Shown: positions 44,954 through 53,901, counted from the first letter of the stretch. The stretch is 64,000 bases of DNA from an uncultured Candidatus Saccharibacteria bacterium (GCA_964636285.1 CAZWQF010000004.1:3666-67665); one strand, 5' to 3'. The notes: generated by a model from the letters alone, not told the origin. Program-made: numbers and translations.

Positions 44954-45584
44954 AGAAAAAACAAGAAATTTAAAAGCAAAAAGGAATTCGACAAAGACCC
45001 ATGCACCCGCCAAATAAGGCGGTTTTTGTTACCCAATAAGCAAAATGTATTAATAGACCTATAGTTTACAAATTGAGTATACTAAAGTATAATCCGTACC
45101 ACAAAGGAATTCCTCCTTTATCCCTTAACTAATTAGAGTTATGGGTTATCACATTGCCGAGATGGCAATTGAAAGGATGGACGAGATGTCCACGTATCGT
45201 AAAGTTTTGAAGAGCGAAGGTGGTCATTGACCAATTGGATCAACAAAGGTGTTGAAAATGGATTGATCACGCAAACAGAGGCTCTACAGTTCAAGGGCGA
45301 CTTGGCCAAGTACGTGTAGAGGTCCTCTAAACCACAGGTCAATTCTCCCCGCCTGTTCCCCGCCCATAGACACGGTTCATCGCTATACGCGCTGAAGCCA
45401 AGCCAAACCCCAAAAGGATTTGGTCCGTGTCTCCCCTAAGTAAATCAAAAAATTTGGTTTGTTTAGGAGAAGAAACGACCTAGAAATAGGTCGTTTTTTG
45501 TGCTCTCCCCGCTCCCCCTTCGATTTTCAAATATTTGTCTTTAGAGTTAAAATCTCCCTCAACAATCAAAAGAAAGGCGTGCGA

Positions 45585-46178
45585 ATGGCAAAAACATTCG
45601 GGATCTTGGGTACATCGCTCTTTGCGCTCTGCATGACCGTTATTGCAGGTGTGGCATTTTTCAAAGAGTGGATGTTTGAACACCCAGATTTGACGTTCAC
45701 AATGGTCACTACGTGTCTCACACTCTCGATTGTGGGCATGGCGATGATGTTTGGTGGATTCCATCTTCATAACAGGACTTCCAAAAAACCCTTCGCCCCA
45801 AACGAGAAGCTCATGAAGGAAGCATTCCAGAGATGGAATGAAATCCTTGTTGAGAGTGGGTTCTTTGTACTTGAATCGAATCAGGGCAAAGGGCCAAACG
45901 GTGACTACAACGCGTACTTTAGGTACGTGGTAGGAAGAGAACCCTTTCATGTAACCCTGACGGTTGGCTCAGTACTGGCAAACGGTTACTATGCAAGGAA
46001 CGTGGCGCTAAGCCCTGCACTAACACAGCTGATCAAGGAGATGAAGCGTTTCAATTTTTACGATGAACAAATTGCCATCGTGAAAGTTGGTGACAGAATG
46101 GTCCGCATGTACGACTTTTTTGTGGATCGGTTTGTGACAGGTTTCACGGTGGTTGTTCGATTTCAGATTGGAAATTAA
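45585..46178 (+). CDS. Island cassette protein A: N-terminal 2-TM anchor + C-terminal domain of about 120 aa (198 aa)
   Basis: SD AAAGAAAGG before ATG; two hydrophobic helices; hairpin terminator after the stop. Confidence 0.55.
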   Translation: MAKTFGILGTSLFALCMTVIAGVAFFKEWMFEHPDLTFTMVTTCLTLSIVGMAMMFGGFHLHNRTSKKPFAPNEKLMKEAFQRWNEILVESGFFVLESNQGKGPNGDYNAYFRYVVGREPFHVTLTVGSVLANGYYARNVALSPALTQLIKEMKRFNFYDEQIAIVKVGDRMVRMYDFFVDRFVTGFTVVVRFQIGN

Positions 46179-46321
46179 GCCCATAATCCCCCCCCCGCTT
46201 GAGAGTGTGCATTTGCCAGAAGCCTTAAGATAATGTCATAGGCAAAGCAAGTGCACACTTTTTCATAAATTGATATAAAATATTTCACACCAAAAGAAAG
46301 CATTCAAAAGAGAGGTAACAA

Positions 46322-46519
46322 ATGAACGCAAGATCTTTGTTGAAGGTTGCTGGAACCTTGAGCATGCTGCTTGGGGTAATAGGCTTTTGCATTGTTCTGT
46401 GGGTGTCATCAAAATCTGGCGTGGGTCCAGGGGCAGCTCTGGAACTAGTCGTTTGCATTGTGATGGTTGGGGTTGGCTACGTTGCATTCACAGAAGATAC
46501 CGAGGTCAGGCGTAATTAG
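46322..46519 (+). CDS. Island small 2-TM protein B (65 aa)
   Basis: SD AAGAGAGG before ATG; two hydrophobic helices. Confidence 0.45.
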   Translation: MNARSLLKVAGTLSMLLGVIGFCIVLWVSSKSGVGPGAALELVVCIVMVGVGYVAFTEDTEVRRN

Positions 46520-46738
46520 TCTTGAGCTAGCGCTTGTCCTGACAACATCTGCTCATCAACTACGGGGAAGGCCAAAAGCCTTGGGCGTAAGCCTGACAGC
46601 CCAGATTCGCAAAATAAATCTAGGCTGTCCCCCTCTCTCACTTTTCCCCAAAGCACTTTGTATTTGACTACCACTATTTAACTTATTGCTATAAAATACC
46701 CGCAACAAATAAACCTAAAAACCTTAAGTGGAGGTGTC
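46520..46738 (+). promoter_or_regulatory. Island intergenic module copy 1 (GGGGAAGGCCAAAAGCCTTGGGC, hairpin GACAGCCCAGATT...AATCTAGGCTGTC, GTCCCCC, TTGACT...TGCTATAAAAT promoter-like box)
   Basis: Shares its 5-prime half with the copies at 47745, 49007, 51326 and 51967. Confidence 0.5.
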
Positions 46739-46984
46739 ATGCGAACCGGATACCATAGAGGTACTTTTCACCTTAAGTATGGGTGGTCAGAAGAGCTAGG
46801 CAGAACATTTATTGAGGTCCACGATCACGTACCGCCATCTGAGGTACTGATTCTGGCACTCCAGCTTGGGATAGCTCAATACCCAGATGACCCAGACGAT
46901 CCGATTTTGGCTGTGAAGCTGCCAAAAAAGGAAAAGCCGGAACTTATCAGATTCTCAGCTCTAAAGAAACGACTGAGGATCTAG
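46739..46984 (+). CDS. Island small soluble protein C (81 aa), family 4
   Basis: SD GGAGGTG; C-terminal ILAVKLPKKEKPELIRFSALKKRL matches LLFVQLPGSDKPEFLSAAQIRDRM of 51110..51325. Confidence 0.5.
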   Translation: MRTGYHRGTFHLKYGWSEELGRTFIEVHDHVPPSEVLILALQLGIAQYPDDPDDPILAVKLPKKEKPELIRFSALKKRLRI

Positions 46985-47144
46985 GGAGGTACTGAATGCG
47001 CAAAAAGTCCATGGCATAGCGTATGGTTGGAATGACGAATGGAAAGCCTTAATCCAACAGCTTAACCAGCTATCTGGAGTTGAGGTGGTACACTATGTCC
47101 CATCAAACGAGCCCAACAAGGCTTAGTAAAAAGGAAAAAGGCAG

Positions 47145-51966: not shown

Positions 51967-52139
51967 CAAACATAGGGGGAGGTAGAAATACCTTAGGTAC
52001 TAGCCTAGCAAGCCAAATCTAATAAAGATTAGCTTGTCCCCCACCCTTTTTACAAGGCGTTTCTTGTTCGACTTTCATATTCTCTACTTTGGTAATACAA
52101 TCTGAATCAACATCAATCCTAACGAAAGGCTTTTTTCAA
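51967..52139 (+). promoter_or_regulatory. Island intergenic module copy 5 (GGGGGAGGTAGAAATACCTTAGGTA, hairpin AGCAAGCCAAATCT...AGATTAGCTTGTC, CCCCCACCC, TTTCATATTCTCTACTTTGGTAATACAATCTGAATCAACA ... ACGAAAGGC)
   Basis: More divergent copy of the same module. Confidence 0.5.
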
Positions 52140-52688
52140 ATGACCAACGAACTTCTCATCGCAGGCACGGTAATTGCGCTAGTATTGCTGTCTGGGTTTG
52201 CAATCTGGTGGTTCAAGACTAAGTCATTACGAGGCTATAAGAACCAACTGAAACACTTGAATGAGGGATGGGTGAGAAAACTTGTTGCAAGTGGCTTCTT
52301 TAAGAAGCAAACAACTCCCCAGAATCACGGACATTTCAACTTGGGTAGTTGGGTTACGTATGAATACCAGGGAAGTTTGTTTGGATGTGAAGTTTCAACT
52401 GGCCCACTGAAACTACGGCCATATCACAACAAATACATACTTCTCAACATATCTGTTTTACCCAGGGATTTACAGTTATTCATCCAACAGATACAGAAAG
52501 TTGGTGATGGAGACCTGGTATGTGTTCTTGCCGAACAGGAGCTTCCTCCGGCTTTTGAAGTGAGCGATGCGGATCAAATTCCTAGGTACACACTGGCTGT
52601 ACAGCTGGACTCAAGATCTCGAACGTCAACATACATCTACATCTCAATCCAGAGCATTGGCGAGGAAGTCATCAAGCAACTGATTTAA
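52140..52688 (+). CDS. Island 1-TM membrane protein L (182 aa)
   Basis: Single N-terminal TM (LLIAGTVIALVLLSGFAIWWF) plus a soluble domain; terminator GCCCG...CGGGC-T6 at about 52742-52786. Confidence 0.5.
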   Translation: MTNELLIAGTVIALVLLSGFAIWWFKTKSLRGYKNQLKHLNEGWVRKLVASGFFKKQTTPQNHGHFNLGSWVTYEYQGSLFGCEVSTGPLKLRPYHNKYILLNISVLPRDLQLFIQQIQKVGDGDLVCVLAEQELPPAFEVSDADQIPRYTLAVQLDSRSRTSTYIYISIQSIGEEVIKQLI

Positions 52689-52910
52689 GCGTCAGCCAGA
52701 TTCAAAGCTTTAATGCGGATTGAAGAGCAGACCAAACCTCTGGCCCGTACAGTAAACACTCTTGTGCGGGCCTCTTTTTTATTACCCTATAGTTTTGTTA
52801 TTTTCCTAAATTAAAAGTATAATCATGTGCAACAACATCTGAAGGCGTTTGCCTTTGGATTACGAACTTGGCTGAGGAAGCCTTGTTCACAACTTTCCGA
52901 GGAGGAAAGA

Positions 52911-53534
52911 ATGCTTAACACACTCAAAACTCACCAGACGTGGGCGAAGATTCTAAGTGATGCCGGTTGCGAGGTAATGCCACATCGCACACAAGACCAT
53001 CTTCGTATCTCGGATGTCCGAGTCTTAATCGACACTGAAGGGAAACCGGTTTACGCCCGCCTTCTAACAGGGCGGCTGAGTTCAAACCAGTCAAAGGCAG
53101 GCTTTGAATGGCAATACTATGCCACGGAGGACATTAAAGACGCGGTCATGCTCCTTAGTGATGAGCGTGTTCCTTATCTAGGTCCTAGGGTATCTGTATT
53201 TAATACTACAAAGGGCGAGGATTTGTACCTAGATTTGATTCTTGAAGACGTGGATGAGTTTGGGAATGGGTGCATTCTCTCCTTCAGGATACCAAACTCT
53301 CCCAAGGCTACTGAACAGTCAACCAATCAAAATCCTTATGAAGTTCTAGTAATGACAGCTGAGCTCAGTGGGGATACAGCTTGGAGCAAAAGGAATCTAC
53401 CCCAGGTTCTTGATTTGCTCAAGCAAGGCTGGGAGATTGAGGGTACTGTATCTGTCCCATCGTATGAAGGAAGCGTTTCTGTCACGTGCTTCTTTTTCAT
53501 GCGTCGACCACTTCTGGGATTTAACCAGAGTTGA
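52911..53534 (+). CDS. Hypothetical soluble protein (207 aa)
   Basis: SD GAGGAGGAAAGA before ATG at 52911; perfect TTGTTA-17-TATAAT promoter at about 52788-52816. Confidence 0.45.
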   Translation: MLNTLKTHQTWAKILSDAGCEVMPHRTQDHLRISDVRVLIDTEGKPVYARLLTGRLSSNQSKAGFEWQYYATEDIKDAVMLLSDERVPYLGPRVSVFNTTKGEDLYLDLILEDVDEFGNGCILSFRIPNSPKATEQSTNQNPYEVLVMTAELSGDTAWSKRNLPQVLDLLKQGWEIEGTVSVPSYEGSVSVTCFFFMRRPLLGFNQS

Positions 53535-53569
53535 AATGCTGAGACTTTGAGACAAAAAAAGGAAACGCA

Positions 53570-53857
53570 ATGAGCACCAAAACACCATTCAACATCGAGG
53601 CACTGGCTGGTCCGAGCGAGGTTTTCCTCACTCAATTCACTGTGAGACCTGATGAACCAAATATGGCGACGAAGGAGTTGGCAGAGGCAGACCTAACCAG
53701 ACGATACGGCAAGCAATACACCCTCCGATTTCATTATGGAGACTTGGGGATGGGAGGGTACAAGGTGACATCAAAGGAGTTTGGGCAACAGACTGTCACC
53801 CCAGATGTGCGAGACTTTGCGTTTGGCGGAGCTGTCTTTGGAACTCCAAAGAGTTAG
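53570..53857 (+). CDS. Hypothetical small protein (95 aa)
   Basis: SD AAAAAGGAAACG; followed by a bidirectional terminator. Confidence 0.45.
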   Translation: MSTKTPFNIEALAGPSEVFLTQFTVRPDEPNMATKELAEADLTRRYGKQYTLRFHYGDLGMGGYKVTSKEFGQQTVTPDVRDFAFGGAVFGTPKS

Positions 53858-53901
53858 CATATCACCGTCAGCACCTTAGCGCGTCCAAAAACATACAATA
53901 G

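Follow-up and report, generated by a model that had tools for sequence, protein, structure and literature searches.

A tandem array of small protein-coding genes lies behind a tRNA cluster in a 64-kb stretch of DNA, hereafter the window, deposited as an uncultured Candidatus Saccharibacteria bacterium (GCA_964636285.1 CAZWQF010000004.1:3666-67665). The locus is known from one sample, where the NCBI contig (132,681 bp) and the Logan assembly of SRR12762304 are 100% identical. Placed by its MreB sequence, the host chromosome is assigned to WWE3 (Katanobacteria), within the Candidate Phyla Radiation (CPR)/Patescibacteria: MreB is 81% identical to that of a ‘candidate division WWE3’ metagenome-assembled genome (MAG) and 77% identical to that of a MAG from Hainich groundwater, with WWE3 and Saccharibacteria-labelled CPR genomes ranking next. 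The array comprises fourteen intact open reading frames (ORFs) of 65–215 aa within 45585-53857, all on the + strand and each preceded by a plausible Shine-Dalgarno (SD) sequence, and every ORF listed in the original prediction, which was made from the sequence alone, is among them. The three tRNA genes that it placed directly upstream on the + strand are likewise called by ARAGORN and Rfam. The intergenic modules define nine transcription units (TUs): [45585], [46322], [46739-47145], [47948-48530], [49202-49892], [50488-51110], [51499], [52140] and [52911-53570]. We show here that in this WWE3 tRNA-cluster hotspot one new domain, soluble or transmembrane-tethered, has undergone lineage-specific tandem expansion with reuse of expression modules. 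The features are listed below, where F1–F4 are paralogue families, D is the new domain, and promoter B and module A are two recurrent intergenic modules (UTR, untranslated region; HMM, hidden Markov model).

43226-43301, + strand: tRNA-Thr(GGT) (ARAGORN, Rfam)
44070-44154, + strand: tRNA-Tyr(GTA) (ARAGORN, Rfam)
44880-44953, + strand: tRNA-Thr(TGT) (ARAGORN, Rfam)
45585-46178, + strand: TU1, 197-aa protein with two-helix transmembrane hairpin and D domain; weak promoter-B-like box 45524-45553, U-tract terminator past the stop codon
46322-46519, + strand: TU2, 65-aa protein, transmembrane hairpin only, resembling the F1 N-terminus; extended -10 promoter (TGATATAAA) upstream
46564-46633, + strand: module A copy 1, 3' end of TU2 (RNAfold z -3.85; descriptor scan)
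46739-47744, + strand: TU3, F4a then F1a; extended -10 promoter at ~46674-46699
46739-46984, + strand: F4a (TU3), 81 aa, soluble
47145-47744, + strand: F1a (TU3), 199 aa, two transmembrane helices and D domain
47785-47858, + strand: module A copy 2 (cloverleaf within 0.5 kcal/mol of the minimum free energy)
47885-49006, + strand: TU4, promoter B (47885-47913) and conserved 5'UTR, F2a, F3a; 6-nt gap between the genes
47948-48523, + strand: F2a (TU4), two transmembrane helices and D domain
48530-49006, + strand: F3a (TU4), soluble D domain
49020-49085, + strand: module A copy 3 (folding; descriptor scan)
49128-50392, + strand: TU5, promoter B (49128-49156), F2b, 135-aa protein; 42-nt gap between the genes, perfect 14-bp hairpin at 50348-50392
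49202-49849, + strand: F2b (TU5), two transmembrane helices and D domain
49892-50299, + strand: 135-aa soluble D-domain protein (TU5)
50431-51325, + strand: TU6, extended -10 promoter (~50431-50456), F1b, F4b; 13-nt gap between the genes
50488-51096, + strand: F1b (TU6), two transmembrane helices and D domain
51110-51325, + strand: F4b (TU6), GTG start
51361-51419, + strand: module A copy 4 (folding; descriptor scan)
51426-51966, + strand: TU7, promoter B (51426-51454) and F3b (51499-51966, soluble D domain) (promoter motif, HMM)
51975-52042, + strand: module A copy 5 (folding; descriptor scan)
52073-52783, + strand: TU8, promoter B (52073-52101) and 182-aa protein (52140-52688, one transmembrane helix and D domain); canonical U-tract terminator at ~52742-52783
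52795-53928, + strand: TU9, sigma70-like promoter (52795-52823), genes 52911 and 53570; bidirectional terminator 53900-53928
52911-53534, + strand: 207-aa soluble protein (TU9), D domain and C-terminal extension
53570-53857, + strand: 95-aa protein (TU9), not a D-domain member
58495-58568, + strand: tRNA-Trp, downstream member of the ancestral cluster (ARAGORN, Rfam)

Pairwise comparison recovers the closest paralogues readily: BLASTP gave E values of 7e-23 for the F1 pair (47145/50488), 4e-13 for the F3 pair (48530/51499) and 2e-8 for the F2 pair (47948/49202), with 52140 as a weaker relative of F2 (z 8.4), while the F4 pair (46739/51110) reached z 9.6, a score matched by 0 of 2000 shuffles. 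Of the four families distinguished earlier, F1, F2 and F4 thus stand as proposed, and F3 keeps two of its three members; the third, 49892, fails the pairwise tests against F3 (E about 1, z 1.9–2.4) and lacks the GIExWV and KAC motifs. In an all-against-all comparison of the 279 window ORFs, paralogy was confined to the island, and it is detectable between the proteins and invisible in the DNA.

The original prediction treated F1, F2, F3 and the singletons as independent families, a view that has to be given up in favour of a single superfamily that also takes in 45585, 52140, 49892 and 52911. The post-transmembrane regions of 45585, 47145, 47948, 49202, 50488 and 52140 align colinearly with the soluble proteins 48530, 51499, 49892 and 52911, with a common hydrophobic pattern of a helix ending in an invariant Gly, strands, a ‘TGP’-like turn, an ‘LP..h..hh’ helix and more strands. 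Comparison of three-member family alignments with hhalign was weakly suggestive (E 0.0026–0.23), so we turned to leave-one-family-out HMMs and structure prediction. When left-out members were scored among 3231 decoys (231 real ORFs and 3000 shuffles), one of them ranked first in every test, with E values of 5e-7 (F1a), 4e-5 (52911), 0.002 (52140), 0.005 (F3b), 0.008 (F2b), 0.025 (F3a), 0.07 (49892) and 0.2 (45585); F2a alone scored beneath two shuffled decoys (E 0.68). The superfamily HMM matches exactly ten of the 279 window ORFs and leaves the F4 proteins, 46322 and 53570 unmatched. AlphaFold2, given the 10-sequence paralogue alignment alone, modelled the F1a domain with a predicted local distance difference test score (pLDDT) of 90.5 and a predicted template modelling score (pTM) of 0.86, and F3a with a pLDDT of 86.2 and a pTM of 0.82. 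In both models a helix is followed by three (to five) strands, a second helix, three more strands and a final helix. Together, the colinear alignment, the HMM tests and the matching predicted architecture indicate that the ‘membrane’ and ‘soluble’ proteins carry one domain, here called the D domain, a predicted α/β domain of ~130 aa that is undescribed and present in ten copies in 9 kb.

Four of the ten copies are soluble and six are tethered, by an N-terminal transmembrane hairpin or, in 52140, by one transmembrane helix. Hydropathy agrees with the two-helix N-termini proposed earlier for the membrane proteins: it predicts two helices in 45585, 46322 (hairpin only), 47145, 47948, 49202 and 50488, one helix in 52140 and none in the other proteins. 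Lys/Arg residues number 1–2 at the N-termini, 0–1 in the short loops and 1–5 just past the last transmembrane helix, a distribution that by the positive-inside rule would have the D domains face the cytoplasm, and we infer that the tethered copies probably sit on the cytoplasmic face of the membrane. Identity between copies is 10–36%, with no conserved surface residues. The ten copies have a single invariant glycine and no polar residue in common, a pattern that suggests a role in binding or scaffolding and not in catalysis; the His/Glu/Asp motifs LGEH, LHxD and MLYLED are peculiar to F1. Seven of the ten domains are basic (pI 8.5–9.5).

Searches of several databases place the array in no known family. 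No island protein matched Pfam/NCBIfam at a Pfam E value of 0.01 or below, whether among known immunity families (SUKH, Imm) or among the housekeeping families against which the original prediction was to be checked. PHROGs returned only a spanin match (E 0.037) lying within a transmembrane segment, PADLOC-DB returned 0 families at E ≤ 0.05 for ten proteins, and a profile search of PDB sequences found nothing. The earlier statement that no integrase, transposase or known toxin domain is recognisable therefore holds, and likewise no phage or defence family is seen. A BFVD fold search yielded no match at E ≤ 0.001, with template modelling scores of at most 0.39. The nearest candidates for comparison among known folds are the KA1-type and Eag/DUF1795 (Mog1/PsbP-like) α+β sandwiches and the single βαβββ modules of the VOC/glyoxalase superfamily; the features that define the latter (paired βαβββ modules, a conserved metal-binding His/Glu set and a PF00903-type match) were not found. 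Nine island proteins looked up in a collection of 15 billion proteins are all singleton 90% clusters. Six island proteins, concatenated and compared exhaustively by phmmer with 1.84 billion representatives, recovered only themselves and the paralogue 50488, and word-indexed searches with a single protein and with the 10-sequence profile gave self matches only. A search of the literature for WWE3/Katanobacteria paralogues brought up nothing relevant.

One match lies outside the window. Among 9625 ORFs from roughly 80 loci around MreB genes, the superfamily HMM identified P0010 (E 2.6e-6), a 146-aa ‘hypothetical protein’ of a Hainich groundwater Patescibacteria MAG. P0010 is a lone soluble copy directly 3' of tRNA-Trp and has a canonical terminator; no further member of the family occurs within 20 kb. 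This homologue of the D family is carried by 13 contigs from other samples (six shown). The existence of P0010 means that the D family is not strictly ORFan. By sequence, the family appears confined, as far as seen, to a small WWE3 subclade, and it is missing from most WWE3 relatives examined.

Comparison with relatives also shows what has happened at the tRNA cluster. In several WWE3 genomes (L018, L011, L005, L014 and L008) the four tRNAs span only 0.4–2.4 kb. The Hainich genome keeps the tRNA order of the window, with spacers filled by unrelated genes (two hypotheticals, a metallophosphoesterase, a CYTH protein, a BrnT/BrnA pair and rpmG), and its Thr(TGT)–Trp gap measures 2 kb against 13.5 kb in the window. 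Past tRNA-Trp, a further 8.2 kb of hypothetical genes separates that tRNA from secE-nusG-rplKAJL in the window genome. Lineage-specific genes have been gained at each junction of the ancestral tRNA-Thr/Tyr/Thr/Trp-secE-nusG-rplKAJL cluster, and the D-domain array lies within one of these spacers. The array is missing at the equivalent site of related genomes, and since the tRNAs of these relatives are compact or have spacers holding unrelated genes, it represents a lineage-specific expansion in an insertion hotspot and not conserved core synteny. The Logan contigs of the sample end exactly at tRNA-Tyr and tRNA-Trp, which fits co-occurring strains that differ between those tRNAs, although this is only a hint.

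Several smaller observations concern the same region. The genes inserted in the cluster junctions (43226-58568 and positions 1-8714 of Logan contig L083) include a HAD hydrolase, a small protein with three transmembrane helices, the array, an Erm-like methyltransferase, GtrA, PIN, TfoX and others. For the HAD hydrolase, the longest ORF (43214-44020) starts within tRNA-Thr(GGT), and the ATG at 43304, just past the tRNA, is the most likely true start. A PIN-domain (VapC-like) toxin gene lies at 59631-60011, downstream of tRNA-Trp, and the equivalent variable region of the Hainich locus holds BrnT/BrnA and MazE/PIN pairs. Hainich contigs L084–L089, from different samples, diverge just 3' of P0010, some having a 263-aa gene where others have one of 248 aa, and only some having a 136-aa gene, which shows strain-level variation in the equivalent region.

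The repeated promoter-like boxes and hairpins noticed earlier are real and far above chance. Promoter B (TTTTCATATTCT.ATTTTTAGTA.TACAAT), followed by a conserved 5'UTR reaching the SD sequence, precedes 47948, 49202, 51499 and 52140 (promoter plus 5'UTR at 47875-47950, 49118-49193, 51416-51491 and 52063-52139), with a weaker form before 45585 (45515-45584) making five copies. An extended -10 box (TG.TATAAAATAC) precedes 46322, 46739 and 50488 (three copies). The extended -10 box serves units containing F1, F4 or 46322, and promoter B serves units containing F2-like or F3-like genes. Over 76 nt, the promoter B copies of 49202 and 51499 share 87% identity though they drive different subfamilies, and promoter/5'UTR identity between paralogues is 70–90% against 30% or less for the proteins. 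The proteins have diverged more than the intergenic modules that serve them, which suggests that the regulatory DNA is under strong constraint or undergoes gene conversion.

Module A, the second recurrent element, is ~60–74 nt long and occurs in five copies that start 9–45 nt past stop codons. Each copy folds into a cloverleaf-like four-way junction that is closed by a GGGG(G)/CCCC(C) stem and bears three hairpins (folding z-scores -3.5 to -4.1). Hairpin 1 carries compensatory variants (AAGGC/GCCUU, AGGUA/UACCU and GGAUA/UAUCU), and the sequence of hairpin 3 differs in almost every copy. A MAFFT alignment sets hairpin 1 of two module A subgroups out of register, and the element was assessed by individual folds and a descriptor scan. 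Elsewhere in the window the scan finds only the true tRNA-Trp, with no instance in 12 kb beyond and 0–2 in shuffles. Module A was rejected as a tRNA or known structured RNA, with no Rfam match at E ≤ 5 and ARAGORN calling only the four true tRNAs. It has no U-tract, whereas other array units end in canonical U-tract terminators; candidate roles are a 3' stabiliser, a processing site, an atypical terminator or a DNA-level site. Like the palindromes of the repetitive extragenic palindrome/bacterial interspersed mosaic element (REP/BIME) type, it is short, repeated, structured and located just 3' of stop codons, with compensatory stem changes; unlike them it forms a four-way junction and not a simple hairpin, its five copies, the only ones in the ~71 kb covered, all lie inside the array, and it has no Rfam match. 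Patterns for promoter B and module A gave 0 matches in IMG/VR and one in JGI metagenomes, on an unrelated AT-rich contig and judged to be chance. As far as the databases searched show, the D domain and module A are new; tandem expansion of paralogues in a variable hotspot is of an already known kind.

Two further features flank the coding part of the array. At its head, 45065-45512 holds a near-consensus promoter (TTTACA-17-TATAAT, 11/12) and then ~400 nt leading to a strong U-tract terminator (45465-45504); this stretch, of unusually high folding stability (z -4.25), contains just two overlapping ORFs of 29 and 30 aa (45141-45230 and 45227-45319) and is a candidate for a small RNA or micro-protein unit. 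At the other end, and convergent with the array, a 290-aa rRNA adenine methyltransferase is encoded on the - strand (53909-54781; GC 0.35, which is low). The protein exceeds the NCBIfam threshold for ‘Erm 23S rRNA methyltransferase’ (216.1 vs 212 bits), and the gene is possibly of the macrolide-resistance type in a CPR genome.

By gene content the window is an ordinary bacterial chromosome, with genes for YchF, a histidine kinase, CysRS, ProRS, RseP, S2, DnaX, TopA, PBP2, MreC, MreB, Def, Fmt, a GH1 glycosidase and a HAD hydrolase. The island had been described as GC-rich, and its GC is indeed raised (0.44–0.48 vs 0.37–0.43 in core genes), as is GC at third codon positions (GC3; 0.38–0.63, at least 0.44 in 13 of 14 genes, vs 0.30–0.39), but most other hypothetical ORFs of the window have the same raised values. 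The genome has two compositional classes of genes, a core with GC3 of 0.30–0.39 and small hypothetical ORFs that mostly have 0.43–0.60 and are interspersed among the core genes, as at 40823-41656, 44245-44538, 54965-55237, 56120-58383 and 58714-63355. The Hainich relative repeats this contrast (P0010 GC 0.469 vs 0.36–0.38 in the neighbouring core). Four small helical ORFs (125–146 aa, + strand), mostly GC-richer, lie at 35910-37733 between mreC (34982-35782, - strand) and mreB (37910-38980, - strand); in the closest relative, L002, mreB and mreC adjoin, so here a core operon has been split by lineage-specific genes.

How could such an array have arisen, and what might it do? We infer an origin from a single soluble copy like the one still found after tRNA-Trp in the Hainich relative. 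Duplication would have followed, some copies gaining a transmembrane hairpin, and then rapid diversification of the proteins while the expression modules were kept or homogenised. The products may form a repertoire of constitutively expressed binders at or near the inner membrane face, each for a different ligand, resembling an immunity or anti-invader set of neutralisers or sensors; tightly coupled tethered and soluble copies may pair through their common domain. A binder repertoire with such a conflict-type role is a tentative proposal, made by analogy. As a whole, expansion together with a binder repertoire is the best explanation we can offer, held with less than even confidence.

The analogy is with the arrays of polyimmunity or orphan immunity genes of polymorphic toxin systems, which were reportedly described by Zhang, Aravind and colleagues, also as acquired interbacterial defence clusters. 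Fast divergence, expansion, a hotspot location and independent promoters give the array its likeness to polyimmunity and defence loci. Polyimmunity arrays too are tandem same-strand sets of small, strongly diverged, non-enzymatic paralogues, soluble or membrane-anchored, in variable chromosomal hotspots and often constitutively expressed, and tandem divergent small paralogues in a variable locus are what we find here. The original prediction of diversifying paralogues that match no known family, in an island-like setting beside tRNAs, is supported in this respect.

Other known systems share single traits with the array. Chlamydial Inc proteins also combine an N-terminal bilobed hydrophobic hairpin with a variable soluble domain and form clustered lineage-specific paralogues with almost no homologues, and the transmembrane hairpins, MreB/PBP2 and a TopA model match had raised the idea of an Inc cluster. 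It was rejected because MreB places the genome in WWE3 (CPR) and not in Chlamydiota; further differences are the lack of a type III secretion system in the window and the existence of soluble copies. The Mycoplasma vlp/vsp and Borrelia erp (‘upstream homology box’) genes belong to multigene families whose upstream regions are conserved and whose coding sequences diverge. As in those families, the array is a tandem cluster in which the promoter/5'UTR (87–90% over 76 nt) far outlasts the proteins (35% aa identity or less). The vlp/vsp and erp products are, however, surface lipoproteins for antigenic or phase variation; the variable domain of the array is predicted to be cytoplasmic, and the array shows no lipobox, signal peptide, phase-variable repeat or invertible element.

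Several points weigh against a binder repertoire of the conflict type. Neither the window nor the 6.7 kb of L083 beyond it has a toxin (Rhs, LXG, CdiA, nuclease, deaminase or similar), secretion, phage or known defence gene beside the array; Pfam/NCBIfam matches among the island and flanking ORFs are limited to housekeeping genes, the Erm-like methyltransferase, GtrA, PIN and TfoX. The toxin/immunity, effector/immunity, superinfection-exclusion and defence roles named in the original prediction are accordingly conjectural. This absence of a nearby toxin gene or domain sets the array apart from polyimmunity arrays, as does the lack of a match to known immunity families and the mixing of soluble and anchored forms of one domain. 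Known immunity families usually spread by horizontal transfer over many genomes; the D family was found in only two, which are related. The pairing of tethered and soluble copies is seen at just two tight junctions, the cytoplasmic orientation is read from the positive-inside rule alone with modest charge differences, and the AlphaFold models derive from an alignment of ten paralogues. Finally, GC-rich hypothetical genes are common throughout the genome, so the island may be merely the largest instance of a general phenomenon, exemplifying a genome-wide class of lineage-specific genes and not a dedicated conflict locus.

A more specific version of the conflict-type proposal, which we regard as speculative and rather unlikely, would make the array a CPR-specific conflict system of an unknown kind, in which tethered and soluble copies of a new fold, expressed from cassettes with cloverleaf-like RNA 3' ends, neutralise or sense phage or toxin proteins at the inner membrane face. 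A peaceful role is somewhat easier to credit, if still doubtful: the proteins may be envelope scaffolds or adaptors, or factors at the interface between a CPR episymbiont and its host, expanded for dosage or sub-functionalisation. The extreme divergence of the copies, without conserved surface residues, the absence of the family from most of the WWE3 relatives examined and the variable content of the hotspot fit arms-race or accessory genes better than housekeeping ones.

The original prediction itself, that distinct membrane and soluble families form two-component modules (here read as toxin/immunity, effector/immunity, holin-like or abortive-infection pairs) expanded as cassettes, now appears improbable. 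Its claim of consistent pairing survives in part, since F1 twice adjoins F4, the latter a genuine paralogue pair, and the two membrane–soluble junctions 47948-48523/48530-49006 and 49202-49849/49892-50299 have the tight gaps of TU4 and TU5; a variable hotspot would also suit such modules. F4, however, precedes F1 in TU3 and follows it in TU6, F3b is monocistronic under its own promoter with no membrane partner, and 49892 is not an F3 member by the pairwise tests. The supposed partners share one domain, no toxin, holin or abortive-infection family is matched, and the Hainich genome has its lone soluble copy without a membrane partner.

An array of mobile cassettes, integron-like or phage-moron-like, in which each ORF and a structured recombination site (module A) were captured beside the tRNAs, is very improbable. 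Integron cassette arrays and clusters of attC sites lacking integron integrases (CALINs) do resemble the locus in having compact unidirectional ORFs, here adjoining tRNAs, with structured elements of ~60–74 nt behind them, as module A stands behind five stop codons, and the contig ends at tRNA-Tyr and tRNA-Trp suggest population heterogeneity. Module A was nonetheless rejected as an attC site: it is a four-way junction and not a single imperfect hairpin, it lacks GTTRRRY/RYYYAAC cores, neither the window nor the adjoining 6.7 kb of L083 has a gene for IntI or another integrase or recombinase, and the units, unlike integron cassettes, have their own promoters and a cargo from one paralogous family. 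No PHROG match lends support and IMG/VR holds no match. We also looked for the integrase or att repeat duplicating a tRNA 3' end that the original prediction proposed to seek, and neither was found: the 16–22-nt ends of the four tRNAs have no direct-repeat copy with up to 4 mismatches allowed, and tRNA-derived att repeats were rejected. Among the marks of a tRNA-integrated island, the locus thus has absence of the insert in relatives and compositional deviation, and neither integrase nor att repeat. That the ORFs are decaying duplicates, chance ORFs or mis-assembly, as singleton proteins and a locus seen in one sample might suggest, is largely refuted by fourteen intact same-strand ORFs with SD sequences, paralogy in protein and not DNA, confident AlphaFold models, conserved promoters, identical NCBI and Logan assemblies, and a homologue on 13 contigs of other samples.

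CPR/Patescibacteria have small genomes rich in unannotated lineage-specific genes, and their dealings with phages, competitors and hosts are largely unknown. The D-domain array is a compact example of gene birth in such a genome, with one soluble tRNA-adjacent gene in one lineage and a ten-copy array in another, the proteins diverging almost to the detection limit while the promoter and 3'-structure modules persist. Even if its function should prove mundane, the locus documents tRNA-cluster spacers as hotspots of insertion and expansion in WWE3, and it offers a confidently predicted new domain architecture, a candidate new structured RNA or DNA motif and tractable test constructs.

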